Positions 21,296 to 58,971 of a DNA stretch of 64,000 nt are shown here, one piece after another (position 1 is the first letter of the stretch; every line of letters starts with the position of its first letter). The notes beneath the pieces were generated by a model. It was given only the letters and a program-made list of their open reading frames with translations. It did not search any database and had not been told where the DNA came from. Made by a program: the position numbers and the translations under genes. The stretch comes from Phyllobates terribilis (lineage: Eukaryota), in the NCBI RefSeq assembly GCF_046119375.1, contig NW_027362772.1:63984001-64048000 (forward strand). The letters are read 5' to 3'.

Positions 21296-22925
21296 CAGTA
21301 CAGACCAAAAGTTTGGACACACCTTCTCATTTAAAGATTTTTCTGTATTTTCATGACTATGAAAATTGAACATTCACACTGAAGGCAGCAAAACTATGAA
21401 TTAACACATGTGGAATTATATAGCTAACAAAAAAATGTGAAACAACTGAAAATATGTCTTATAATCTAGGTTCTTCAAAGTAGCCACCTTTTGCTTTGAT
21501 GACTGCTTTGCACACTCTTGGCATTCTTTTGATGAGCTTCAAGAGGTAGTCACCGGAAATGGTCTTCCAACAATCTTGAAGGAGTTCCCAGAGATGCTTA
21601 GCACTTGTTGGCCCTTTTGCCTTCACTCTGAGGTCCAGCTCACCCCAAACCATCTCAATTGGGTTCAGGTCTGGTGACTGTGGAGGCCAGGTCATTTGGC
21701 GTAGCACCCCATCACTCTCGTTCTTGGTCAAATAGCCCTTACACAGCCTGGAGGTGTGTTTGGGGTCATTGTCCTGTTGAAAAATAAATGATGGTCCAAC
21801 TAAATGCAAACCGGATGGAATAGCATGCCGCTGCAAGATGCTGTGGTAGCCATGCTGGTTCAGTATGCCTTCAATTTTGAATAAATCCCCAACAGTGTCA
21901 CCAGCAAAGCACCCCCACACCATCACACCTCCTCCTCCATGCTTCACGGTGGAAACCAGGCATGTAGAGTCCATCCGTTCACCTTTTCTGCGTCGCACAA
22001 AGACACGGTGGTTGGAACCAAAGATCTCAAATTTGGACTCATCAGACCAAAGCACAGATTTCCACTGGTCTAATGTCCATTCCTTGTGTTCTTTAGTCCA
22101 AACAAGTCTCTTCTGCTTGTTGCCTGTCCTTAGCAGTGGTTTCCTAGCAGCTATTTTAACATGAAGGCCTGCTGCACAAAGTCTCCTCTTGGCAGTTGTT
22201 GAAGAGATGTGTCTGCTGCTAGAACTCTGTGTGACATTGACCTGGTCTCTAATCTGAGCTGCGCTTAACCTGTGATTTCTGAGGCTGGTGACTCGGATAA
22301 TCTTATCCTCAGAAGCAGAGGTGACTCTTGGTCCTCTTTTCCTGGGGCGGTCCTCAAGTGAGCCAGTTTCTTTGTAGCGATTTATGGTTTTTGCAACTGC
22401 ACTTGGGGACACTTTCAAAGTTTTCCCAATTTTTCGCATTGACTGACCTTCATTTCTTAAAGTAATGATAGCCACTCATTTTTCTTTACTTAGCTGCTTT
22501 TTTCTTGCCATAATACAAATTCTAACAGTCTATTCAGGAGGACTATCAGCTGTGTATCCACCTGACTTCTGCACAACACAACTGATGGTCCCAACCCCAT
22601 TTATAAGGCAAGAAATCCCACTTATTAAACCTGACAGGGCACACCTGTGAAGTGAAAACCATTTCCGGTGACTACCTCTTGAAGCTCATCAAGAGAATGC
22701 AAAGAGTGTGCAAAGCAGCCATCAAAACAAAAGGTGGCTACTTTGAAGAACCTAGAATATAAGACATATTTTCAGTTGTTTCACACTTTTTTGTTAAGTA
22801 TATAATTCCACATGTGTTAATTCATAGTTTTGATGCCTTCAGTGTGAATGTACAATTTTCAAAGTTATGAAAATACAGAAAAATCTTTAAATGAGAAGGT
22901 GTGTCCAAACTTTTGGTCTGTACTG
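21296..22925 (-). mobile_element. Full-length Tc1-superfamily transposon, DD38E (Intruder-type), 1630 bp
   Basis: TA TSD both sides; 268-bp TIRs (21296-21563, 22658-22925) starting cagtacagaccaaaagtttggacacac; transposase on the minus strand. Confidence 0.95.
21459..22511 (-). pseudogene. DD38E transposase, 350 codons, single premature TGA at codon 12
   Basis: ATG GCA AGA AAA AAG CAG CTA AGT AAA GAA AAA TGA GTG..., then open to EEPRL*. Motifs WSDESKF, FQQDNDPKH and SPDLNPIE, with 38 residues between the second D and E. The ORF-track start at 22475 is a GTG just after the stop. Confidence 0.9.
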
Positions 22926-27280: not shown

Positions 27281-29290
27281 CAGTGGTGTAACTAGAATCC
27301 AATGAGACCCAGTGCAAAATTTGGACCTGGGTCCCCAGCTGCATGTCGGTCAGATGCACGGACTCTTGTAGCATTCAAGATTCTATGAAGACATATGTGT
27401 TCGCCCCTCACCTCTATGTAATACTGTCCCCCATCCTGTAATAATGTCCCCGATCCTGGCCCCTTCCTGTAACGATGTGCCCTCTCATGGGCCCTTTCCT
27501 AGTATAATGTTTCCTATCCTGGTCCCCTTCCTGGTTGTCACGCCAGGTGTGGGAAAAACTTAGTGCAACACAGAGGGAAAGGGAGCACAGACACTAGGGA
27601 GAGGGTGGAGTGAAGACCTCCTAGTCTGGTCTAGTGTCACCCTGTCTCAACTACTGTCCCTATATTGCCTCTTCAGCAATCGCCACACGTGTGCCTCGCC
27701 CTGCTCTCCCTGGCGTATGGGTAAGGCTAGGGATGGGAGGAGATGAGCACTAGTTGATCTCCACTAAACTCTATAGACAACAAGGGTAGACAAACAGAGG
27801 GAAATTGCTTAGCTTTAGACGACTCCAAATGCGCTCTTGGCCTCAAGCTCCAGAGAGGACGAAGTACTGCTCTTGCTAAAGCCTCACAAGTAGAAATGAA
27901 TATCGCCGGCACCTCCATCTCAGACACACTTGGTATATATACACCCAGGCCAGGGTGCTAATTAGCCAGAGGGAGGTAGCCGCTAGGTACTAGAGACAGC
28001 TTCTCATCTAAGAAGATGTCAGAAATGCCAAACGTAGAGATCTCCTGCAACCAACTGCAGGGCGACTGTCACCTCCAATACAACCGTGACACTGGTATAA
28101 TGTCCACCATCCTGGTATAATGTCACTTATCATTAGCCCCTTCCAGTAATAATGCCCCTCTTCATGGGCCCATTACTGGAATAATGTCCCCCTTCTTAGA
28201 CCCTTTCTGCTATAATGTTCCCCATCCTGGGCCCCTTTCTGATATGATGTCTACCATCCTGGTATAATGTCCCTTATCCTGGGCCCCTTCCAGTAATAAT
28301 GTCCATCTTCATAGGCCCCTTCCTGGTACAATGTCTGCCATCTTTGGCCCCTTATTGGTATAATGTCCCCCATCCTGGTATAATGTTTCTTATCCTGGGC
28401 CCCTTCCAGTAATAATGTCCCTCTTCATGGGCCCCTTCCTGGTATAATGTTCCCGATCCTGGGCCCCTTTTGGTATAATGTCCTCCATCCTGGTATAATG
28501 TCCCTCTTCATGGGCCCCTTCCTGGTATAATGTCCCCCATCTTGGGTCCCTTCCTGGTGTAATGTCTCCCATCTTGGGCCCCTTCCTGGTAAAATGGTCC
28601 CCATACTGGGCCCCTTTTTGGTATAAAGTCCCCCATTCTGATATAATATCCCTCATCCTGGGCCCCTTCCAGTAATAATGTCCATCTTCATAGGCCCCTT
28701 CCTGGTACAATGTCTGCCATCTTTGGCCCCTTATTGGTATAATGTCCCCCATCCTGGGCCCCTTCTTGCTATAATGGCCCCCATCCTGGTATAATGTTTC
28801 TTATCCTGGGCCCCTTCCAGTAATAATGTCCCTCTTCATGGGCCCCTTCCTGGTATAATGTTCCCGATCCTGGGCCCCTTTTGGTATAATGTCCTCCATC
28901 CTGGTATAATGTCCCTCTTCATGGGCCCCTTCCTGGTATAATGTCCCTCATCTTGGGTCCCTTCCTGGTGTAATGTCTCCCATCTTGGGCCCCTTCCTGG
29001 TAAAATGGTCCCCATACTGGGCCCCTTTTTGGTATAAAGTCCCCCATTCTGATATAATATCCCTCATCCTGGGCCCCTTCCAGTAATAATGTCCTTCTTC
29101 ATGGCCCCTTCCTGGTACAATGTATCCCATCTTGGGCCACTTATTAGTATAATGTCCCCCATCTTGAGCCCCTTCTTGGTATAATGTTTCCCATCCTGGT
29201 CCTCTTTCTAGTATAATGTTCCTTATCCTGAGCCCCTTCCAGTAATAATGTCCCTCTTCATGGGCCCTTTCCTGGTATAATGTCCCCCAT
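27281..29290. mobile_element. hAT-like non-autonomous element with a ~32-bp GC-rich minisatellite, interrupted by a solo LTR
   Basis: Left end cagtggtgtaactag; unit about ggtataatgtcccccatcctgggccccttcct at 27415-27530 and 28092-29285. Right TIR not found. Confidence 0.6.
27536..28091 (-). mobile_element. Solo LTR, 556 bp
   Basis: CTGGT|tgtcacg ... cgtgaca|CTGGT; 5-bp TSD, TG...CA ends, TATA at 27934-27941; homologous to 62840-63420. Strand inferred from the TATA context. Confidence 0.9.
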
Positions 29291-30445
29291 CCCTTTGCTA
29301 GTAAAGCCCACTTTTATACCAGGCAACACCAAGGGGGCACTATATCAATACCCTTTAATTGTGTCCTCTATGCTGATACTGCCCAGCCATGGATATGGTG
29401 GCCCCGCTCAACGTTGGCTGACTGCCCTAGGTGGCCATATGATAGAAAAGACCCATAAGGTCAACAGCCTATAGAAAATAGCCAAAGGAATAATGATGAC
29501 CCATATGATCATCATCCAAACAGATAATGGGCCAAGAAATGCAATTTTGACTATTCAACAGAAAGGGCACAAATGTTATGTATACAATAAATTCCTCATA
29601 AGAAATTATGAAAAAGAAGCCAGATACTCATCCATTCATAACGTGTTTCTTCATGGTATGCTTCATCAGGAGGCTGGTCTAGGTAAAGGAAAAAAACTAG
29701 TCACAAGTCCAGCCAGATTTTCTTGCTTAAAGTTTAAAGGGGTTTCAAAAAAAGTGATCCCCAAACCATTGGATACTTGTAAAAAAAAAACAACGAACAC
29801 AGATAGTACTACTCATCCTCACCCGGTCCAACGCCAGCTCCCTGCCACTGCTCCAGTTTCTGTTTTGGCTGCAAAGGTGACATCACAACTTCAGCGCTTA
29901 TCACTGCTGCAGCCAATCGCTGAGCTTAGCGGCTTTGCTAATGTAGAAGGCACAAGTAGCGGTCATGTGCACTGTAGGACCTATCGTTTGGGGGGGAAAA
30001 CTACAACTATCATGCACAGACTGCTGTAGTCTGGATGTGTTTATTGACTAGCACATATCATTGAGTAACTTACACTGCTCAAAAAAATAAAGGGAACACT
30101 CAAATAACACATCATAGATCTGAATGAATGAAATATTCTCATTGAATACTTGGTTCTGTACAAAGTGGAATTTGCTGACAACAAAATCACACAAAAATCA
30201 TCAATGGAAATCAAATTTATTAACCAATGGAGGCCTGGATTTGGAGTCACCCCCAAAATTAAAGTCGAAAAACACAGTACAGGCTGATCCAACTTTGATG
30301 TAATGTCCTTAAAACAAGTCAAAATGAGACTCCGTATTGTGTGTGGCCTCCACGTGCCAGTAGACCTTCCTACAACGCCTGGGCATGCTCCTGATGAGGT
30401 TGTGGATGGTCTCCTGTGGGATCTCCTCCTAGACCTGATCTAAAG

Positions 30446-31773
30446 TGTTATGCACACGCCCGGGCTAAGCGGCGTGTGCGTGTGATTGGTAGTGATTCCA
30501 CTGGACCGTGCCGGAGAGTGAATGCCTGGAGGGGCGTGACTAGGTATTCACCCGATCCGACCAGGGTCGCACGACGGCATACGACGCCAGTGCACCAAGG
30601 AGGAACCGAGCAGAGGGACCAGGTGCTACTCCAGGACAGACCCCGGACACGGCTGTTGACCCACACAGGGGAATACAGGAACAGGCTGGTAGGCTGGCAC
30701 ACAGACTGGTGGGTATAGGCAGGCACGACTGGTATGCAGGCAGGCGGGTATGCAGGCAGGGGGGTAAAGACAAGCACAGCTAGAGTGCAGACAGGGAGGC
30801 ACTAGCAGGTAGGAACACAGGCGGGATAGGACCCAGTACACACCGGGACTCAGGAACAATACAGGCAGAGGGTTACAGGCAAGCACAGCTAGAGTGCAGA
30901 CAAGGCTGAGCAGGGAGGACAGGGCTCTGTTCACACGGAACAGACAGGAAGGGAAAGACAGAGCCAGATACTCACACAGTACTTGCAGAGACAACAAGCA
31001 GGAGTTAGGTACGAGTTCAGACTCTGCAGAAAAAGGAAGGGAACGGACATAGAGGCAAAACAGGTAAAGGACAGGAGAGAGTTCAGACTGGAACTGAGTG
31101 TACGGAGGAGACCGACACTGCAGAGGGATACAGGAGCGGGTCTGGGAATACGGCCCCCAGAAGGCGGAACGAACAGGCAAGGAGCGTGTTCAGACAGGAC
31201 AGACCAGAGAACACAAAAAGGACACAGTTCAGACACGGGAGCTGATACCGCAAAGCAGGAGACATACAGGACTCAGTTCAGACACGGGAGCTGAAACCGC
31301 AAAGCAGGAGACATACAGGACTCAGTTCAGACACGGGAGCTGATACCGCAAAGCAGGAGACATACAGGACACAGTTCAGACACGGGAGCTGATACCGCAA
31401 AGCAGGAGACATACAGGACTCAGTTCAGACACGGGAACTGATACAAAAAGCAGGAGACAAGAGACGGGACCTGGCACCTTCAGAGTGCAAGCACACACTG
31501 AAGGAAACACTATGCTCAGGCAGGGATAAAAGGGAGCTGCTGAGCTATATACCAAGTGACAGACAGCAATAGGCTGAGGACGCACAAGGGGTGTGACCCA
31601 CAGCAGGTACAAAAGGCAGGAAGTGATCGGGCGCCGCCCTTAAGCAGCAGAAACAGACACAAACAGACAGCATGGAGGGAAGCCAGAGAGACATTCTGGA
31701 CAGGAGATCAAGTGCGCCCTCTTGCACAGTGGGAGATGGACCACCATGCAAGGACGCCGCCAGGTATGTTACA
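30446..31773 (-). repeat. 3' LTR of copy 1
   Basis: Direct repeat of 33764-35091 at offset 3318; at least 3 substitutions seen; contains 49-bp tandem units starting at 31225, 31274, 31323, 31372 and 31421. Confidence 0.96.
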
Positions 31774-33620
31774 GTACCTCCCCCCTTACGCCCCCTCTTC
31801 TTCAGGCCTGCCAGAATCTTCCGCAGGGAATTCGAGGGCCAGTCGTTCACTGGGTTGGAGGGGGACAGAGACTTAAGGGTAATCTCTGCTTCGAGGTACA
31901 TCTTGTCAAGCTCACAGGAAGAAATAGACGGGTTATCAGGTACATAATGAGGAAAAGTCACTGTCTCTTTGTTATCTGGTGGTATCCCGGAGGATTCAGG
32001 AAACAACTGGAGGTCCTCCGCCGGGTCAGAAGAGTGCAGAGGCTCAGAGAAAACAACTGCTTCAGAGTACACTAGGTCGGACTCACTGGAGGAAGCAGGC
32101 GAGGTATCGGGTACCGAGTATAGGAAAGTCTCTGTCCATTCACCACCAGGTGGCACCCCGAAGGGTTCTGGAGACAGCTGGCGGTCCTCCGCCTGGTCAG
32201 AGGGGTGTAGAGACTCACGGGTAACCTCTGCTTCAGAGTACACTAGGTCGGACTCACTGGAGGAAGCAGGCGAGGTATCGGGTACCGAGTATAGGAAAGT
32301 CTCTGTCCATTCACCACCAGGTGGCACCCCGAAGGGTTCTGGAGACAGCTGGCGGTCCTCCGCCTGGTCAGAGGGGTGTAGAGACTCACGGGTAACCTCT
32401 GCTTCAGAGTACACTAGGTCGGACTCACTGGACGAAGCAAGCGAGGTATCAGATCCAGGATATAGGAAAGTCTCTGTCCATTCACCACCAGGTGGCACCC
32501 CGAAGGATTCTGAACACAACTGGAGGTCCTCCGCCTGGTCGGAGGGGTGTAGAGACTCAGGAGTAACCTCTGCTTCGGAGTACACTAAGTTGGACTCACT
32601 GGACGAAGCGAGCGAGGTATCAGGTACAGAGTATAGGAGAGTCTCTGTCCTTTCGCTACCAGGTAGCACCCCGAAGGGTTCAGGAGACAACTGGAGATCC
32701 TCCGCCTGGTCGGAGGGGTGTAGAGACTCGGAGGTAACTACCACTTTGGGGTACCCATTGTCAGGCTCACAGGACGAAGCGGACAAAGTATTGAGTACCG
32801 GGTGTAGAGAAGTCTCTCTCCATTTGTCATCGAGTGGTATCCCGGAGGGTTCAGGAGGCAACAGGGGATCCTCCGCCAGGTAGTAGAGGTGCACAGACTC
32901 TGAGGTAACCACAGCTTTGGAGCATCCTTGGACATGCACACCGGTTAAAGAGAAAGAAGCATCTGATGCCGGGTGCAGGAAGTTCTCCTGTGTGGAGTCT
33001 GGATGGGCAGAAGTCTCTTCGGCCAGGAGAACTGGTGCACTACCCACGCACATTACCCATTGGGGTTTCTCCGGGATACAGGGAGATGAAGCTTCAGTAG
33101 GGACTTCAAGGTTGGGGTCAGGAGGTCTCAGGGAGGACAGACCCTGGCGTGACGGCTTGCCTCTAAGTCTAGCACGTCTGGACTGCCTCTTGAGGTTGAG
33201 AGAAGTATTCCGGAAAGCGTAGTCACCCTGTGAGGATTCTGGGTGGGCAGTAGTCTCATTGGGCTGGAGGACTATTGCGCTACCCACACACATTACCCGT
33301 CGGGGCTGCTCCGGGATATTGGGAAGTGAAGCTTCAGCAGGGGCTTCAGAGTTAGGGTCCTCGAAGACCATACGAAAGGCCACCAGGAAGGCCTGCAGGT
33401 CAAGGATGACAGGATCCCATGCTTCCCATAGGGGGGTGACCCATTTCAAGGCATCACCCGCTAGGTAGTCAATCATAAAGGCCACTTTAGCCCAATCGGA
33501 AGGAAAATAGAGAGGGTAGGCCTTAAAGTGTAGCATGCATTGCTCCACAAATGCACGACACTGTCTTGGATCCCCATAGTAACGTGGCGGATCCGCAGGA
33601 ACGAGGGCTGATAGATCCAT
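31545..33620 (-). CDS. 691-aa Gag capsid-NTD (Retrotrans_gag/DUF4939-like) plus acidic 57-aa repeat protein, copy 1
   Basis: Intact ATG-to-TAG ORF. N-terminus PPRYYGDPRQCRAFVEQC...SDWAKVAFMIDYLAGDALKWVTPLW...FLVAFRMVFEDP matches the Sushi/PEG10/RTL8/LDOC1 capsid-NTD pattern. Expression untested. Confidence 0.75.
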   Translation of the reverse strand: MDLSALVPADPPRYYGDPRQCRAFVEQCMLHFKAYPLYFPSDWAKVAFMIDYLAGDALKWVTPLWEAWDPVILDLQAFLVAFRMVFEDPNSEAPAEASLPNIPEQPRRVMCVGSAIVLQPNETTAHPESSQGDYAFRNTSLNLKRQSRRARLRGKPSRQGLSSLRPPDPNLEVPTEASSPCIPEKPQWVMCVGSAPVLLAEETSAHPDSTQENFLHPASDASFSLTGVHVQGCSKAVVTSESVHLYYLAEDPLLPPEPSGIPLDDKWRETSLHPVLNTLSASSCEPDNGYPKVVVTSESLHPSDQAEDLQLSPEPFGVLPGSERTETLLYSVPDTSLASSSESNLVYSEAEVTPESLHPSDQAEDLQLCSESFGVPPGGEWTETFLYPGSDTSLASSSESDLVYSEAEVTRESLHPSDQAEDRQLSPEPFGVPPGGEWTETFLYSVPDTSPASSSESDLVYSEAEVTRESLHPSDQAEDRQLSPEPFGVPPGGEWTETFLYSVPDTSPASSSESDLVYSEAVVFSEPLHSSDPAEDLQLFPESSGIPPDNKETVTFPHYVPDNPSISSCELDKMYLEAEITLKSLSPSNPVNDWPSNSLRKILAGLKKRGRKGGGTVTYLAASLHGGPSPTVQEGALDLLSRMSLWLPSMLSVCVCFCCLRAAPDHFLPFVPAVGHTPCASSAYCCLSLGI

Positions 33621-33763
33621 CTGGACGGGTGCGTAATTCGCCTGGAACTCAGCTAAAGGGGGAAAAAAATTTATTTATTTTATTTTAATGCATGTATTCG
33701 CTGGAAAAACTTCTCAAAGAGCGAAGGCCGTGGGGCTCAACGGGAACCATGGCCTGAGCATGC

Positions 33764-35091
33764 TGTTATGCACACGCCCGGGCTAAGCGGCGTGTGCGTG
33801 TGATTGGTAGTGATTCCACTGGACCGTGCTGGAGAGTGAATGCCTGGAGGGGCGTGACTAGGTATTCACCCGATCCGACCAGGGTCGCACGACGGCATAC
33901 GACGCCAGTGCACCAAGGAGGAACCGAGCAGAGGGACCAGGTGCTACTCCAGGACAGACCCCGGACACGGCTGTTGACCCACACAGGGGAATACAGGAAC
34001 AGGCTGGTAGGCTGGCACACAGACTGGTGGGTATAGGCAGGCACGACTGGTATGCAGGCAGGCGGGTATGCAGGCAGGGGGGTAAAGACAAGCACAGCTA
34101 GAGTGCAGACAGGGAGGCACTAGCAGGTAGGAACACAGGCGGGATAGGACCCAGTACACACCGGGACTCAGGAACAATACAAGCAGAGGGTTACAGGCAA
34201 GCACAGCTAGAGTGCAGACAAGGCTGAGCAGGGAGGACAGGGCTCTGTTCACACGGAACAGACAGGAAGGGAAAGACAGAGCCAGATACTCACACAGTAC
34301 TTGCAGAGACAACAAGCAGGAGTTAGGTACGAGTTCAGACTCTGCAGAAAAAGGAAGGGAACGGACATAGAGGCAAAACAGGTAAAGGACAGGAGAGAGT
34401 TCAGACTGGAACTGAGTGTACGGAGGAGACCGACACTGCAGAGGGATACAGGAGCGGGTCTGGGAATACGGCCCCCAGAAGGCGGAACGAACAGGCAAGG
34501 AGCGTGTTCAGACAGGACAGACCAGAGAACACAAAAAGGACACAGTTCAGACACGGGAGCTGATACCGCAAAGCAGGAGACATACAGGACTCAGTTCAGA
34601 CACGGGAGCTGAAACCGCAAAGCAGGAGACATACAGGACTCAGTTCAGACACGGGAGCTGATACCGCAAAGCAGGAGACATACAGGACACAGTTCAGACA
34701 CGGGAGCTGATACCGCAAAGCAGGAGACATACAGGACTCAGTTCAGACACGGGAACTGATACAAAAAGCAGCAGACAAGAGACGGGACCTGGCACCTTCA
34801 GAGTGCAAGCACACACTGAAGGAAACACTATGCTCAGGCAGGGATAAAAGGGAGCTGCTGAGCTATATACCAAGTGACAGACAGCAATAGGCTGAGGACG
34901 CACAAGGGGTGTGACCCACAGCAGGTACAAAAGGCAGGAAGTGATCGGGCGCCGCCCTTAAGCAGCAGAAACAGACACAAACAGACAGCATGGAGGGAAG
35001 CCAGAGAGACATTCTGGACAGGAGATCAAGTGCGCCCTCTTGCACAGTGGGAGATGGACCACCATGCAAGGACGCCGCCAGGTATGTTACA
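33764..35091 (-). repeat. 5' LTR of copy 1
   Basis: Followed on the minus strand by gc + atgctcaggc (33761-33752), the non-tRNA PBS. Confidence 0.96.
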
Positions 35092-36691
35092 TAAAGCATC
35101 GGCCAACTCCTGGACAGTCTGTGGTGCAACGTTGGTGGATGGAGCGAGACATGATGTCCCAGATGTGCTCAATCGGATTCAGGTCTGGGGAACGGGCGCA
35201 CCAGGCCATAGCTTCAATGCCTTCATCTTGCAGGAACTGCTGACACACTCCATCCACATGAGGTCTGGCATTGTCCTGCATTAGGAGGAATCCAGGGCCA
35301 ACCACACCAGCATATGGTCTCACAAGGGGTCTGAGGATCTCATCTCGGTACCTAATGGCAGTCAGGCTACCTCTGGCGAGCACATGGAGGGCTGTGCGGC
35401 CCTCCAAAGAAATGCCACCCCACACCATTACTGACCCACTGCCAAACCGGTCATGCTGAAGGATGTTGCAGGCAGCAGATCGCTCTCCACGGCGTCTCCA
35501 GACTCTGTCACGTCTGTCACATGTGCTCAGTGTGAACCTACTATCATCTGTGTAGAGCACAGGGCGCCAGTGGCGACTTTGCCAATCCTGGTGTTCTGTG
35601 GCAAATGCAAAGCGTCCTGCACGATGTTGGGCTGTGAGCACAACCCCCATCTGTGGAAGTCAGGTCCTCAGACCACCCTCATGGAGTCGGTTTCTAACCG
35701 TTTGTGCAGACACATGCACATTTGTGGCCTGCTGGAGGTCATTTTGCAGGGATCTGGCAGTGCTGCTCCTGTTTCTCCTTGCAAAAAGGCGGAGGTAACT
35801 GTCCTGCTGCTGGGTTGTTGCTCTCCTACGGCCCCCTCCACGTCTCCTGGTGTGCTGGCCTGTCTCCTGGTAGCGCCTCCAGCCTCTGGACACTACGCTG
35901 ACAGGCACAGCAAACCTTCTTGCTATAGCTCGCATTGATGTGCCATCCTGGATGAGCTGCACTACCTGAGCAACTTCTGTGGGTTGTAGAGTCCGTCTCA
36001 TGCTACCACGAGTGTGAAAGCACAACCAACATTCAAAAGTGACCAAAACATCAGCCAGAAAGCATTGGTACTGAGATGTGATCTGTGGTCCCCACCTGCA
36101 GAACCACTCCTTTATTGAGGGTGTCTTGATAATTGCCAATAATTTCCATCTATTGTCTATTTCATTTGCACAACAGGATGTGAAATTGATTGTCAATCAG
36201 TGTTGCTTCCTGAGTGGACAGTTTTATTTCACAGAAGTTTGATTTACTTGGAGTTATATTCTGTTGTTTAAGTGTTCCCTTTATTTTTTTTATCAGTGTA
36301 TTATGTTTTGTACCTTTACTCAAAAAAGTTGATAAGAATCATGACTTTCTCAGCGAATGATCACATGATTCCAATGATACCTTCCTTCTAATGTACTATA
36401 GCATATTCTTTAATGTTGGGAACTATGTAACATCACTGCACCAATTAGAATTATCAAGTAGAAAACTACAATTGTGTGATTTGGAAGCCCTACTAACTAC
36501 CATGTTTCCCCAAAAATAAGGCAGGATCTTATATTATTTTTTGCTTCGAAAGATGGGTCAGAGCTTATATTCAGGGGATGTCTTATTTTTTTCCATGAAA
36601 AGCAATCCACATTTATTCTTGAACAAAAAAAATCAACATTTATTCAAATATAATCATGTCACGACATATACACACACACACGTATATACAT

Positions 36692-38614: not shown

Positions 38615-40140
38615 CAGTGGGGGAAAAAAATATTTGATCCCTTGCTGTTTTTGTAAGTTTGCCCACTGACAAAGACATGAACAATCTATAATTTTAAGGG
38701 TAGGTTAATTTTAACATTGAGAGATAGAATATCCCCAAAAAAAAAATTCAAGAAAATCACATTGTATAAATTAGATAAATTTATTAGCATTTTGCAGTGA
38801 GAAATAAGTATTTGATCCCTGTGGCAAACAACACTTAATACTTGGTGGCAAAACCCTTGTTGGCAAGCACAGCAGTCAGACGTTTTTTGTAGTTGATGAT
38901 GAGGGTTGCGCACATGTCAGGAGGAGTTTTGGTCCACTCCTCTTTGCAGATCATCTCTAAATCATTCAGATTTTGAGACTGTCACTTGGCAACTCGGAGC
39001 TTCAACTCCCTCCATAAGTTTTCTATGGGATTAAGGTCTGGAGACTGGCTAGGCCAATCCATGACCCTAATGTGCTTCTTTTTGAGCCACTCCTTTGTTG
39101 CCTTGCCTTGTATGTTTTGGGACATTGTCTTGCTGGAAGACCCAGCCACGACCCATTTTTAATGTCCTGGCGGAGGGAAGGAGGTTGTCACTCAGAATTT
39201 TACGGTACATGGCTCCATCCATTCTCCCATTAATACAGTGAAGTATTCCTGTGCCCTTAGCAGAGAAACACCCCCAAAACATAATGTTTCCACCTCCATG
39301 CTTGACAGTGGGGATGGTATCATAGGCACCATTTTTCTTCCTCCAAACACGGCGAGTTGAGTTAATGCCACAAAGCTCAATTTTTGTCTCGTCTGACCAC
39401 AGCACCTTCTCCCAATAACTCACATAATTATCCAGGTGTTCATTGGCAAACTTCAGACGGGCCTGCACATGTGCCTTCTTGAGCAGGGGGACCTTGCGGG
39501 CACTGCAGAATTTTAAACCTTTCAGGCGTAATGTGTTACCAATGGTTTTCTTGGTGATTCTGGTCCCAGCTGCCTTGAGATCATTAACAAGTTCCCCCCG
39601 TGTAGTTTTAGGCTGATCTCTCACCTTCCTCATGATCAAGTATACCCCACGAGATGAGATTTTGCATGGTGCCCCAGATCGATGCCTCAGCGTCTTACTT
39701 ATGATTTTGTAGCCCGTTCCAGCTATGTGCAGGTCTATGATCTTGTCCCTGACATCCTTAGAAAGCTCTTTGGTCTTGCCCATGTTGTAGAGGTTAGAGT
39801 CTGACTGATTAATTGAGTCTGTGGACAGGAGTCTTTTATATAAGTGACTATGTAAGACAGCTGTCTTTAATGCAGGTAACGAGTTGAATAGGAGCGTCTA
39901 ACTGGTCTGTAGGAGCCAGAACTCATAATGGTTTGTAGGGGATCAAATACTTATTTCTCACTGCAAAATACAAAAAAAATGTCTAATTTATACAATGTGA
40001 TTTTCTTGATTTTTTTTTTGGGATATTCTATCTCTCAAAGTTAAAATTAACCTACCCTTAAAATTATAGACTGTTCATGTCTTTGTCAGTGGGCAAACTT
40101 ACAAAAACAGCAAGGGATCAAATACTTATTTCCCCCACTG
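38615..40140 (-). mobile_element. Tc1 IR/DR-type transposon (Frog Prince/Sleeping Beauty-like), internally deleted and frameshifted
   Basis: TA|cagtggggga ... tcccccactg|TA, about 215-bp TIRs. ORF 39067-39783 reads [17 protein letters not shown]...WSDETKIEL...FQQDNVPKH, with a deletion after ISKTL. Confidence 0.93.
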
Positions 40141-54273: not shown

Positions 54274-55626
54274 TGTAACATACCTGGCGGCGTCCTTGCA
54301 TGGTGGTCCATCTCCCACTGTGCAAGAGGGCGCACTTGATCTCCTGTCCAGAATGTCTCTCTGGCTTCCCTCCATGCTGTCTGTTTGTGTCTGTTTCTGC
54401 TGCTTAAGGGCGGCGCCCGATCACTTCCTGCCTTTTGTACCTGCTGTGGGTCACACCCCTTGTGCGTCCTCAGCCTATTGCTGTCTGTCACTTGGTATAT
54501 AGCTCAGCAGCTCCCTTCTATCCCTGCCTGTGCATAGTGTTTTCCTTCAGTGTGTGCTTGCACTCTGAAGGTGCCAGGTCCCGTCTCTTGTCTCCTGCTT
54601 TTTGTATCAGTTCCCGTGTCTGAACTGAGTCCTGTATTTCTCCTGCTTTGTGGTATCAGCTCCCGTGTCTGAACTGAGTCCTGTATGTCTCCTGCTTTGC
54701 GGTATCAGCTCCCGTGTCTGAACTGAGTCCTGTATGTCTCCTGCTTTGCGGTATCAGCTCCCGTGTCTGAACTGACTCCTTTCTGTGTTCTCTTGTCTGT
54801 CCTGTCTGAACACGCTCCTAGCCTGTTCCTCTCGCCTTCTAGTGGCCGATTTCCTAGACCCGCTCCTGTGTCTGGTCTGTCCTGTCTGAACACGCTCCTT
54901 GCCTGTTCGTTCCGCCTCTCTGGGGGCCGTATTCCCAGACCCGCTCCTGTATCCCTCTGCAGTGTCGGTCTCCTCCGTACACTCAGTTCCAGTCTGAACT
55001 CTCTCCTGTCCTTTACCTGTTTTGCCTCTATGTCCGTTCCCTTCCTTTTTCTGCAGAGTCTGAACTCGTACCTAACTCCTGCTTGTTGTCTCTGCAAGTA
55101 CTGTGTGAGTATCTGGCTCTGTCTTTCCCTTCCTGTCTGTTCCGTGTGAACAGAGCCCTGTCCTCCCTGCTCAGCCTTGTCTGCACTCTAGCTGTGCTTG
55201 CCTGTAACCCTCTGCCTGTATTGTTCCTGAGTCCCGGTGTGTACTGGGTCCTATCCCGCCTGTGTTCCTACCTGCTAGTGCCTCCCTGTCTGCACTCTAG
55301 CTGTGCTTGCCTTTACCCCCCTGCCTGCATACCCGCCTGCCTGCATTCCAGTCGTGCCTGCCTATACCCTCCAGTCTGTGTACCAGCCTGTTCCTGTATT
55401 TCCCTGTGTGGGTCAACAGCCGTGTCCGGGGTCTGTCCTGGAGTAGCACCTGGTCCCTCTGCTCGGTTCCTCCTTGGTGCACTGGCGTCGTATGCCGTCG
55501 TGCGACCCTGGTCGGATCGGGTGAATACTTAGTCACGCCCCTCCAGGTATTCACTCTCCGGCACGGTCCAGTGGAATCACTATCAATCACACGCACACGC
55601 CGCTTAGCCCGGGCGTGTGCATAACA
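54274..55626 (+). repeat. 5' LTR of copy 2
   Basis: tgtaacatacc ... gtgtgcataaca; repeated at 57619-58971, at least 2 substitutions seen. Confidence 0.96.
54496..54535 (+). promoter_or_regulatory. LTR TATA box and predicted transcription start / self-primer GCCTGTGCAT (54526-35)
   Basis: TATATA at 54496; the 10-mer complementary to the PBS starts exactly 30 nt downstream. Confidence 0.7.
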
Positions 55627-55628
55627 GC

Positions 55629-55638
55629 ATGCACAGGC
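55629..55638 (+). other. Non-tRNA primer-binding site ATGCACAGGC
   Basis: Starts 2 nt after the LTR's terminal CA; lacks the TGG of tRNA PBSs; perfect reverse complement of 54526-35. Confidence 0.8.
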
Positions 55639-55771
55639 CATGGTTCCCGTTGAGCCCCACGGCCTTCGCTCTTTGAGAAGTTTTTCCAGCGAATACATGC
55701 ATTAAAATAAAATAAATAAATTTTTTTTTCCCCCTTTAGCTGAGTTCCAGGCGAATTACGCACCCGTCCAG

Positions 55772-57847
55772 ATGGATCTATCAGCCCTCGTTCCTGCGGA
55801 TCCGCCACGTTACTATGGGGATCCAAGACAGTGTCGTGCATTTGTGGAGCAATGCATGCTACACTTTAAGGCCTACCCTCTCTATTTTCCTTCCGATTGG
55901 GCTAAAGTGGCCTTTATGATTGACTACCTAGCGGGTGATGCCTTGAAATGGGTCACCCCCCTATGGGAAGCATGGGATCCTGTCATCCTTGACCTGCAGG
56001 CCTTCCTGGTGGCCTTTCGTATGGTCTTCGAGGACCCTAACTCTGAAGCCCCTGCTGAAGCTTCACTTCCCAATATCCCGGAGCAGCCCCGACGGGTAAT
56101 GTGTGTGGGTAGCGCAATAGTCCTCCAGCCCAATGAGACTACTGCCCACCCAGAATCCTCACAGGGTGACTACGCTTTCCGGAATACTTCTCTCAACCTC
56201 AAGAGGCAGTCCAGACGTGCTAGACTTAGAGGCAAGCCGTCACGCCAGGGTCTGTCCTCCCTGAGACCTCCTGACCCCAACCTTGAAGTCCCTACTGAAG
56301 CTTCATCTCCCTGTATCCCGGAGAAACCCCAATGGGTAATGTGCGTGGGTAGTGCACCAGTTCTCCTGGCCGAAGAGACTTCTGCCCATCCAGACTCCAC
56401 ACAGGAGAACTTCCTGCACCCGGCATCAGATGCTTCTTTCTCTTTAACCGGTGTGCATGTCCAAGGATGCTCCAAAGCTGTGGTTACCTCAGAGTCTGTG
56501 CACCTCTACTACCTGGCGGAGGATCCCCTGTTGCCTCCTGAACCCTCCGGGATACCACTCGATGACAAATGGAGAGAGACTTCTCTACACCCGGTACTCA
56601 ATACTTTGTCCGCTTCGTCCTGTGAGCCTGACAATGGGTACCCCAAAGTGGTAGTTACCTCCGAGTCTCTACACCCCTCCGACCAGGCGGAGGATCTCCA
56701 GTTGTCTCCTGAACCCTTCGGGGTGCTACCTGGTAGCGAAAGGACAGAGACTCTCCTATACTCTGTACCTGATACCTCGCTCGCTTCGTCCAGTGAGTCC
56801 AACTTAGTGTACTCCGAAGCAGAGGTTACTCCTGAGTCTCTACACCCCTCCGACCAGGCGGAGGACCTCCAGTTGTGTTCAGAATCCTTCAGGGTGCCAC
56901 CTGGTGGTGAATGGACAGAGACTTTCCTATATCCTGGATCTGATACCTTGCTTGCTTCGTCCAGTGAGTCCGACCTAGTGTACTCTGAAGCAGAGGTTAC
57001 CCGTGAGTCTCTACACCCCTCTGACCAGGCGGAGGACCGCCAGCTGTCTCCAGAACCCTTCGGGGTGCCACCTGGTGGTGAATGGACAGAGACTTTCCTA
57101 TACTCGGTACCCGATACCTCGCCTGCTTCCTCCAGTGAGTCCGACCTAGTGTACTCTGAAGCAGAGGTTACCCGTGAGTCTCTACACCCCTCTGACCAGG
57201 CGGAGGACCGCCAGCTGTCTCCAGAACCCTTCGGGGTGCCACCTGGTGGTGAATGGACAGAGACTTTCCTATACTCGGTACCCGATACCTCGCCTGCTTC
57301 CTCCAGTGAGTCCGACCTAGTGTACTCTGAAGCAGTTGTTTTCTCTGAGCCTCTGCACTCTTCTGACCCGGCGGAGGACCTCCAGTTGTTTCCTGAATCC
57401 TCCGGGATACCACCAGATAACAAAGAGACAGTGACTTTTCCTCATTATGTACGTGATAACCCGTCTATTTCTTCCTGTGAGCTTGACAAGATGTACCTCG
57501 AAGCAGAGATTACCCTTAAGTCTCTGTCCCCCTCCAACCCAGTGAACGACTGGCCCTCGAATTCCCTGCGGAAGATTCTGGCAGGCCTGAAGAAGAGGGG
57601 GCGTAAGGGGGGAGGTACTGTAACATACCTGGCGGCGTCCTTGCATGGTGGTCCATCTCCCACTGTGCAAGAGGGCGCACTTGATCTCCTGTCCAGAATG
57701 TCTCTCTGGCTTCCCTCCATGCTGTCTGTTTGTGTCTGTTTCTGCTGCTTAAGGGCGGCGCCCGATCACTTCCTGCCTTTTGTACCTGCTGTGGGTCACA
57801 CCCCTTGTGCGTCCTCAGCCTATTGCTGTCTGTCACTTGGTATATAG
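55772..57847 (+). CDS. 691-aa Gag capsid-NTD plus acidic 57-aa repeat protein, copy 2
   Basis: Intact ORF; three amino-acid differences from copy 1 in the track (SESFG>R, DTSL>DTLL, YVPD>YVRD); the last ~75 codons lie in the 3' LTR. Confidence 0.75.
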   Translation: MDLSALVPADPPRYYGDPRQCRAFVEQCMLHFKAYPLYFPSDWAKVAFMIDYLAGDALKWVTPLWEAWDPVILDLQAFLVAFRMVFEDPNSEAPAEASLPNIPEQPRRVMCVGSAIVLQPNETTAHPESSQGDYAFRNTSLNLKRQSRRARLRGKPSRQGLSSLRPPDPNLEVPTEASSPCIPEKPQWVMCVGSAPVLLAEETSAHPDSTQENFLHPASDASFSLTGVHVQGCSKAVVTSESVHLYYLAEDPLLPPEPSGIPLDDKWRETSLHPVLNTLSASSCEPDNGYPKVVVTSESLHPSDQAEDLQLSPEPFGVLPGSERTETLLYSVPDTSLASSSESNLVYSEAEVTPESLHPSDQAEDLQLCSESFRVPPGGEWTETFLYPGSDTLLASSSESDLVYSEAEVTRESLHPSDQAEDRQLSPEPFGVPPGGEWTETFLYSVPDTSPASSSESDLVYSEAEVTRESLHPSDQAEDRQLSPEPFGVPPGGEWTETFLYSVPDTSPASSSESDLVYSEAVVFSEPLHSSDPAEDLQLFPESSGIPPDNKETVTFPHYVRDNPSISSCELDKMYLEAEITLKSLSPSNPVNDWPSNSLRKILAGLKKRGRKGGGTVTYLAASLHGGPSPTVQEGALDLLSRMSLWLPSMLSVCVCFCCLRAAPDHFLPFVPAVGHTPCASSAYCCLSLGI
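57605..57615 (+). other. Polypurine tract
   Basis: (gaagaagagggggcgt)aaggggggagg-tac|tgtaaca, immediately before the 3' LTR. Confidence 0.85.
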
Positions 57848-58971
57848 CTCAGCAGCTCCCTTCTATCCCTGCCTGTGCATAGTGTTTTCCTTCAGTGTGT
57901 GCTTGCACTCTGAAGGTGCCAGGTCCCGTCTCTTGTCTCCTGCTTTTTGTATCAGTTCCCGTGTCTGAACTGAGTCCTGTATTTCTCCTGCTTTGCGGTA
58001 TCAGCTCCCGTGTCTGAACTGAGTCCTGTATGTCTCCTGCTTTGCGGTATCAGCTCCCGTGTCTGAACTGAGTCCTGTATGTCTCCTGCTTTGCGGTATC
58101 AGCTCCCGTGTCTGAACTGACTCCTTTCTGTGTTCTCTTGTCTGTCCTGTCTGAACACGCTCCTAGCCTGTTCCTCTCGCCTTCTAGTGGCCGATTTCCT
58201 AGACCCGCTCCTGTGTCTGGTCTGTCCTGTCTGAACACGCTCCTTGCCTGTTCGTTCCGCCTCTCTGGGGGCCGTATTCCCAGACCCGCTCCTGTATCCC
58301 TCTGCAGTGTCGGTCTCCTCCGTACACTCAGTTCCAGTCTGAACTCTCTCCTGTCCTTTACCTGTTTTGCCTCTATGTCCGTTCCCTTCCTTTTTCTGCA
58401 GAGTCTGAACTCGTACCTAACTCCTGCTTGTTGTCTCTGCAAGTACTGTGTGAGTATCTGGCTCTGTCTTTCCCTTCCTGTCTGTTCCGTGTGAACAGAG
58501 CCCTGTCCTCCCTGCTCAGCCTTGTCTGCACTCTAGCTGTGCTTGCCTGTAACCCTCTGCCTGTATTGTTCCTGAGTCCCGGTGTGTACTGGGTCCTATC
58601 CCGCCTGTGTTCCTACCTGCTAGTGCCTCCCTGTCTGCACTCTAGCTGTGCTTGCCTTTACCCCCCTGCCTGCATACCCGCCTGCCTGCATTCCAGTCGT
58701 GCCTGCCTATACCCTCCAGTCTGTGTACCAGCCTGTTCCTGTATTTCCCTGTGTGAGTCAACAGCCGTGTCCGGGGTCTGTCCTGGAGTAGCACCTGGTC
58801 CCTCTGCTCGGTTCCTCCTTGGTGCACTGGCGTCGTATGCCGTCGTGCGACCCTGGTCGGATCGGGTGAATACTTAGTCACGCCCCTCCAGGTATTCACT
58901 CTCCGGCACGGTCCAGTGGAATCACTATCAATCACACGCACACGCCGCTTAGCCCGGGCGTGTGCATAACA
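57619..58971 (+). repeat. 3' LTR of copy 2
   Basis: Direct repeat of 54274-55626. Confidence 0.96.

Follow-up and report, generated by a model that had tools for sequence, protein, structure and literature searches.

LTR retrotransposons that belong to the Tf1/sushi group of Ty3/gypsy chromoviruses, including Tf1/Tf2 of Schizosaccharomyces pombe and Tj1, have a PBS that complements the predicted 5′ end of their own RNA and not a tRNA, according to the available parts of two reports (PMC10085805, PMC4600332). In the literature searched, itself available in part, self-priming is shown by experiment only for yeast Tf1 and is predicted from complementarity for vertebrate sushi-type elements. For the plant lineages Tcn1 (gypsy) and TAR (copia), it was predicted from at least 10 bp of complementarity between the PBS position and the 5′ LTR (PMC6317226); the accessible part of that work, unlike the present analysis, has no test of co-variation or inheritance across copies. 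In HIV/SIV, interchange of PBS-Lys3 and PBS-Lys5 shows that the primer dictates the PBS, with 50:50 resolution (PMC4549124, in the portion available), and we infer a similar copying of primer into PBS here. In HIV/SIV, however, the PBS is returned to one constant sequence by a host tRNA, whereas here the primer is element-encoded, so that primer and PBS are free to drift jointly and to become fixed in new matched combinations. Self-priming is already known in this group; what is new is a non-autonomous member and natural evidence on inheritance. Our literature search, which did not extend to the main primary papers, found no natural co-variation or inheritance of a self-primer, and we therefore make no claim of absence.

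The window, a 64,000-nucleotide stretch of the Phyllobates terribilis genome, contains two copies of one LTR element, each with TG..CA LTRs, a 5-bp TSD, a polypurine tract (PPT), a single gag-like ORF and no pol. Copy 1 (35091..30446, minus strand, TSD CTTTA) has 1328-bp LTRs, the 5′ one at 33764..35091 and the 3′ one at 30446..31773. The first T of its TATA box (34864..34869) lies 30 nt before the start of a 10-mer, GCCTGAGCAT, the predicted self-primer (+1..+10, 34830..34839; variable base +6 at 34834); the 3′ LTR holds a second GCCTGAGCAT at 31521-31512. Beyond the LTR end come GC (33762..33763), which would be the first two DNA bases of the minus strand, then the 10-nt PBS ATGCTCAGGC in its majority state (33752..33761, variable base 33757), and then CATGG. 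The gag-like ORF (31545..33620, 691 aa) contains 171-nt (57-aa) repeats at 31978-32917, and the internal length of copies varies in ~171-nt steps; it extends past the PPT (31776..31790) into the 3′ LTR and ends within the TATA box there. There are also 49-nt repeats within the LTRs (31219-31459 and 34537-34777). Copy 2 (54274..58971, plus strand, TSD GTTAT) has 1353-bp LTRs at 54274..55626 and 57619..58971, a predicted self-primer GCCTGTGCAT at 54526..54535 with a variant T at 54531, a second GCCTGTGCAT at 57871-57880, the PBS ATGCACAGGC at 55629..55638 with a variant A at 55633, and a gag-like ORF at 55772..57847. Both copies are young, since their LTR pairs differ at just three bases (copy 1) and two bases (copy 2).

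These elements resemble Tf1/sushi elements in that the PBS complements their own 5′ LTR at the predicted RNA 5′ end and has no tRNA-type TGG start. They differ in lacking pol, being non-autonomous, and in having a 10-nt primer that lies ~1.1-2 kb from the PBS across tandem repeats. Their 3′ end matches the Sushi motif CNTNACA and their 5′ end is off TGTYANR by one base (Table 3 of PMC3601003, a source available in part); the TG..CA LTRs, PPT and 5-bp TSD are hallmarks of integrase-type insertion. In the window element itself pol and a chromodomain integrase are absent, the gag-like ORF being the only one. The DUF4939 match of that ORF is below the cut-off, a search with 95 aa of gag against longer proteins only found no homologous protein, and a PDB search gave nothing better than E 0.48. 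Of 11 C/D-type loci compared, 10 have gag frames that share 44-53% identity with the N-terminal 100 aa of the window's gag, and U5 and PPT are similar as well. One of these relatives in this genome (L311) encodes Retrotrans_gag, protease, RVT_1, RT_RNaseH, Integrase_H2C2, SH3_Tf2-1 and Chromo domains. Judging by sequence, we class the window elements as a non-autonomous derivative of Tf1/sushi chromoviruses and not as full members. Tandem units with one common LTR occur in this genome (L159/L160, L228, L251, L293, L204), as for integrase-independent Tf1 insertion (PMC11042837, in part). Other chromovirus elements are nested in B and C elements (L316-L318, L310).

The letters at both sites of the two copies are as an earlier sequence-only reading had given them: primer and PBS are complementary at 10/10 positions in each copy, complementarity stops at both edges, and the U5 end is identical in both copies. 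The 10-mer begins exactly 30 nt past the first T of TATATA, and the PBS, without a TGG start, is its exact complement. A perfect 10-mer somewhere in a 1.3-kb LTR has a chance of ~0.1% (1328/4^10), and a far lower one at a fixed distance from TATA. Between families (the labels A1, A2, B, C1, D, H1 and H2 are ours; A1 is the promoter type of the window copies) matched pairs vary at three positions, +4, +6 and +10. The pair is GCCTGAGCAT/ATGCTCAGGC in family A, GCCTGAGCAA/TTGCTCAGGC in the older subfamily B, GCCTGTGCAA/TTGCACAGGC in family C1 and GCCCGAGCAA/TTGCTCGGGC in family D, that is, GCCCG(A/T)GCAA/TTGC(T/A)CGGGC. In C1, 11/11 co-located pairs among the 31 PBS matches in range agreed, at least 1350 PBS matches were in the variant state and 97/100 starts fitted; in D, 34/34 co-located pairs among 37 PBS matches agreed, and in one of these elements the variant state occurs throughout, as T in each LTR and as A in the PBS. 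These co-located pairs were counted by eye from listings, and the C1 and D search patterns fix +4 and PBS position 7 and leave only +6 and PBS position 5 free. The spacer from TATA to the 10-mer differs among the four promoter types A1, A2, B and C/D, and its length is 30 nt in all of them. Co-variation between families, together with this constant spacing, makes the strongest case for a functional pairing, and it supports the earlier reading in so far as the pairing is genuine and conserved. Exceptions to matching exist (L192, L329, L331-L336 are mismatched). D-type LTRs with PBS TTGCTCAGGC (L331-L336; 597 matches) were considered as evidence of cross-priming and dropped, because CpG decay, a known mutational source, yields the same change; a third B pair (+8/PBS position 3), matched in one LTR of 2/10 elements, was too rare for use. 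Family D comprises 19,962 PBS matches and 47,200 starts; its ~20,000 PBS copies and ~47,000 LTRs, with LTR-LTR spacing near 5.3 kb, suggest a very large burst of a full-length chromovirus.

Folding of natural 1.1-1.4 kb 5′ regions at 20 °C (10 copies) gave the primer/PBS helix a pair probability of 0.99 when matched (5-6 copies), 0.61-0.88 with a U.U mismatch (3 copies) and 0.03-0.36 with A.A (2 copies); the better-tolerated mismatch, U.U, is the commoner class. This helix would be the central one of a three-duplex 'pretzel' RNA structure; the flanking helices vary between folds. A 9-bp U5 stem, predicted at 33770..33797 on the minus strand of copy 1, occupies the U5-end GTGTGC.

Searching the PBS pattern through the 10.6-Gb genome gave 5656 matches, of which 89 had a base other than T at position 5; 67 of these were the element (66 A, 1 G), and the other 22 were excluded as not the element. 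Among subfamily A1 LTRs, 6467 have A at +6 and 387 another base (T in 98 of the first 100 of these). Such counts, with 66/5656 PBS-A matches, make copy 2 the rare variant and not copy 1, the reverse of the polarity in the earlier reading, which had placed the change in copy 1. For comparison between classes we fetched the 66 other position-5 matches, 37 two-LTR start-T elements from genome sequences C1-C3 plus 7 single start-T LTRs, and, from the initial 127 Mb of genome sequence C1, 36 start-A elements. Before the final set of 129 elements was reached, 5 duplicates and 4 tandem second units were taken out, and among the 148 loci 14 were without a parsed PBS, 10-mer start or LTR terminus (7 had a single LTR). 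Both LTRs share the same 10-mer in 128/129, so that the state of the 10-mer is set at replication.

Strict co-variation of the two sites, as read from the two window copies, does not extend to the family. Among 60 independent PBS-A insertions, 31 start with T (matched), 27 start with A (25 A1, 2 A2) and 2 have another change, leaving 29/60 unmatched; of the start-T elements on genome sequences C1-C3, 5/42 have PBS-A and 37/42 keep the old PBS. All 35 parsed start-A controls have the majority PBS. The mismatched copies are young, with no LTR-LTR substitution in 16 start-T/old-PBS and 13 start-A/PBS-A elements, and young mismatched copies outnumber matched variant ones. Many young copies with mismatched letters, which the earlier reading had named as the observation that would speak against it, are thus present, and tight selection for 10/10 pairing is not the pattern of this family.

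The letters are strongly linked all the same. In A1, PBS-A occurs in 5/42 start-T elements (12%); among the start-A elements, whose number is put at 700-870, it occurs in 3 (an estimated 0.4%; Fisher p ~1e-5). Samples were picked by class, and the start-A denominators were estimated from LTR counts. On these estimated denominators the link persists inside both haplotype pools, with odds ratios of about 6 and 50. In pool H2, 17/100 LTRs start with T and ~5-6% of start-A elements have PBS-A; in pool H1 the values are ~3% and ~0.2%; and in A2, 6/2413 LTRs are non-A at +6, none of them paired, with 2 PBS-A copies. The PBS-A rate among start-A elements thus goes up with the pool's start-T level (A2, H1, H2). 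The link recurs in a small sample of subfamily B, where 2/4 start-T elements with a readable PBS were matched, versus about 7/500; 3/5 PBS-A copies in B were unmatched, and PBS-G was almost as frequent. Tabulating the two 10-mers, as the earlier reading had proposed, therefore yields a mixed outcome, in which strong residual linkage coexists with common young mismatches. This combination agrees more closely with primer copying than with tight selection; of the explanations offered earlier, a PBS re-copied from the primer stands as the best, and close selection on pairing is unsupported.

The surroundings of the PBS letter point the same way. If the PBS came from the template RNA alone, PBS-A should travel with the adjoining gag bases, which is not what we see. 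Paired with each of five gag markers at a distance of 32-59 nt, PBS-A gives four-gamete tables with a smallest cell of 6-21; pairs of the markers themselves are nearly tree-like, with 0-1 in 9/10 pairs and 5 in one. PBS-A lies on six gag-side haplotypes (counts 18, 19, 6, 7, 3 and 3) with no founder; oversampling of PBS-A enlarges the four-gamete cells but cannot erase a founder. Clusters of near-identical elements contain all four classes, 17/28 close pairs differ in class, and copy 2 differs from its sibling L226 (both 4698 bp) at eight positions, one of which is the PBS letter.

We consider it highly probable that these elements prime from their own RNA, and probable, with less assurance, that the PBS receives a copy of the primer and that strands are exchanged between RNAs packaged together. 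Transcription would start at the 10-mer, which would pair with the PBS, be cut off and then be extended, the GC beside the LTR end being added first. Both progeny LTRs would take +1..+10 from one RNA, often other than the one that primed, and the new PBS would be a heteroduplex, one strand copied from the primer and one from the template, that resolves to either. If a central mismatch is tolerated, a primer variant could spread first and then convert the PBS in part of the progeny. Exchange between co-packaged RNAs would reshuffle the primer and PBS sites, intermolecular strand transfer would give the start-A/PBS-A class, and over long times families could fix matched pairs. Against primer copying, conversion is well below 50:50, with most start-T elements keeping the old PBS. 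Rare paired primer variants at +4, +5, +8, +9 and +10 had no matching PBS change among the matches listed, and those family-A copies that were fetched for a PBS change at another position were unmatched. Most rare unmatched primer variants may be dead-end events of the last cycle.

Other explanations leave parts of this pattern unaccounted for. Self-priming might be real and the PBS nevertheless derive from the template only, PBS-A being a compensatory mutation of one or few origins that was spread by recombination and selection. Enrichment of both variants in the same young pool (H2), heavy recombination in the family and conversion below 50% would all suit such a history, which we nonetheless regard as unlikely given the missing gag-side founder next to nearly tree-like gag markers, the near-identical sisters in different classes and an association that holds within both pools on estimated denominators. 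Quasi-palindrome correction is a known mutational mechanism, and PBS-A could be a recurrent correction of this kind templated by the U5 end (TGTGCAT..ATGCACA), with T at +6 arising repeatedly by slippage onto that near-repeat and the linkage only apparent. The U5 end had earlier been used as a control against a hairpin; it points the opposite way, because the variant PBS completes a 7-bp inverted repeat with it, and a hairpin could therefore template the variant. Furthermore, 66/67 position-5 changes in family A are to A, +6 T recurs in subfamily B (32/41 non-A LTRs), and it is unlinked to both flanks. On the other hand, A2 has an identical U5 end and almost no variants, the next templated change is found in 0/66, the U5 end is predicted to sit in its own 9-bp stem, and independent hot spots would not yield the within-pool odds ratios. 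We hold this explanation to be about as improbable as the previous one.

A gag-only element needs a helper, and the T-type primer might come from co-packaged pol-bearing helpers, GCCTGTGCAA being the normal primer of C1, and be copied from there into the non-autonomous element, at its PBS and in its LTR. At least 1350 C1-type PBS copies are in the variant state, and a Chromo search found many ~1500-aa frames in the genome; among 30 matches, none pointed to a large family that combines the PBS of the window copies with a different gag start. However, the helper's A at +10 should travel along, and TTGCAC is found in 0/67 in-family matches, T6 with A10 in just 10 LTRs versus 387 non-A6 LTRs with T10. 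The far larger family D has left no trace either (G at PBS position 7 in 0/21 matches, its C at +4 in 0/100 and 3/15 LTR matches), and an origin from such a putative helper seems quite improbable. Least credible of all is priming by a host RNA, a tRNA or a fragment, with the LTR complementarity serving another purpose. The RNA start is predicted and the primer deduced from sequence, which leaves some room for it; against it stand the PBS without a TGG start, a TGG 13 nt further on whose distance does not suit the 2-nt end found in the TSDs, and a PBS whose changes from family to family follow those of the LTR 10-mer.

Separately, the TSDs bear on where DNA synthesis starts. Among 125 TSDs, 117 are perfect at 5 bp and 8 are imperfect, all at positions 1-2 of the right copy and all toward GC (right flanks, U5 end, at L172, L224, L227, L230, L233, L234, L244 and L282). 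All 10 changed bases conform to the order G, C, which is what the element itself has directly inward of the CA that ends its LTR; the third base is never reached, and no counterpart was found at the left (U3) end in the 125 TSDs. GC in the TSDs suggests that the linear DNA likely ended 2 nt beyond CA, with the 3′ end of the primer on the first PBS base. This DNA end fits a 10-nt primer, and the start of DNA synthesis likely adjoins the PBS. In the available part of a study of Tf1 (PMC11042837), about half of the cDNA has a copy of the PBS at its 3′ end, and the Tf1 reverse transcriptase (RT) adds non-templated bases to most cDNA ends.

At the other end of the pair, the base at +6 shows no linkage to either flank (D′ 0.04-0.22; 0.04 with -1 and 0.11 with +11), compared with D′ 0.87 between +11 and +19, and both +6 alleles are found in 12/16 exact flank pairs. 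The classical Tf1 scheme ties +6 to U3, so that an extra route or recurrent mutation is needed; the pattern needs crossovers on either side of a 12-nt interval, patch exchange or recurrent mutation. Variation is also concentrated at the edges of the 10-mer. The -1 base (34840) is G in 14-22/100 A1 LTRs on many haplotypes and C in 100/100 A2 LTRs. The +10/+11 junction (34829-34830), a predicted cleavage site, is hypervariable (AGTG, AAGTG, ATGTG, TGTG), with non-T at +10 in 100 LTRs, mostly in both LTRs of an element, plus insertions. Elsewhere in the 10-mer there are 15 variant matches at +4, and 49 at +5, +7, +8 and +9 combined. The variation at -1 and +10/+11 may mark the two end points of strong-stop DNA, an idea offered tentatively because A2 lacks the -1 change. 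RT can copy a cap, and in every family examined the PBS is followed by a C, with which a cap G would pair; cap copying is a candidate for the general cause of G at -1, but a doubtful one, given 14-22/100 in A1 and 0/100 in A2.

More speculatively, and with the chances somewhat against it, the self-primer could be a freely exchanged cassette in particles, passing from one co-packaged RNA to another and entering both the PBS and the start site in the LTR without regard to the flanks. Strong-stop DNA would then end at the cleavage site and at the capped end, leaving scars at +10/+11 and -1, and a still-attached primer end would leave GC in the TSDs. If so, a vertebrate genome would record the whole self-priming cycle, and a self-primed pair could change its sequence without crossing a fitness valley. 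Unlike for Tf1, thousands of natural copies with primer and PBS variants make inheritance readable from the genome, so that the inheritance of a self-primer, in cis or in trans, and its co-evolution can be tested without an active element. Self-priming thus has independent genomic support from three sides: the co-varying positions, three in number, the physical footprint left where priming starts, and the linkage at population level.

The window contains other repeats. Copy 1 sits in a Tc1-type transposon (DDE_3 match; 35092-36200 and 30050-30445), and more Tc1 frames lie at 21459-22475 and 39067-39897. A 93-nt tRNA-Gly(CCC) was called by ARAGORN at 27492-27584 and may be a SINE or a false call. 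A 44-bp tandem-repeat array runs from 45390 to at least 46970, with more than 50 overlapping register copies.
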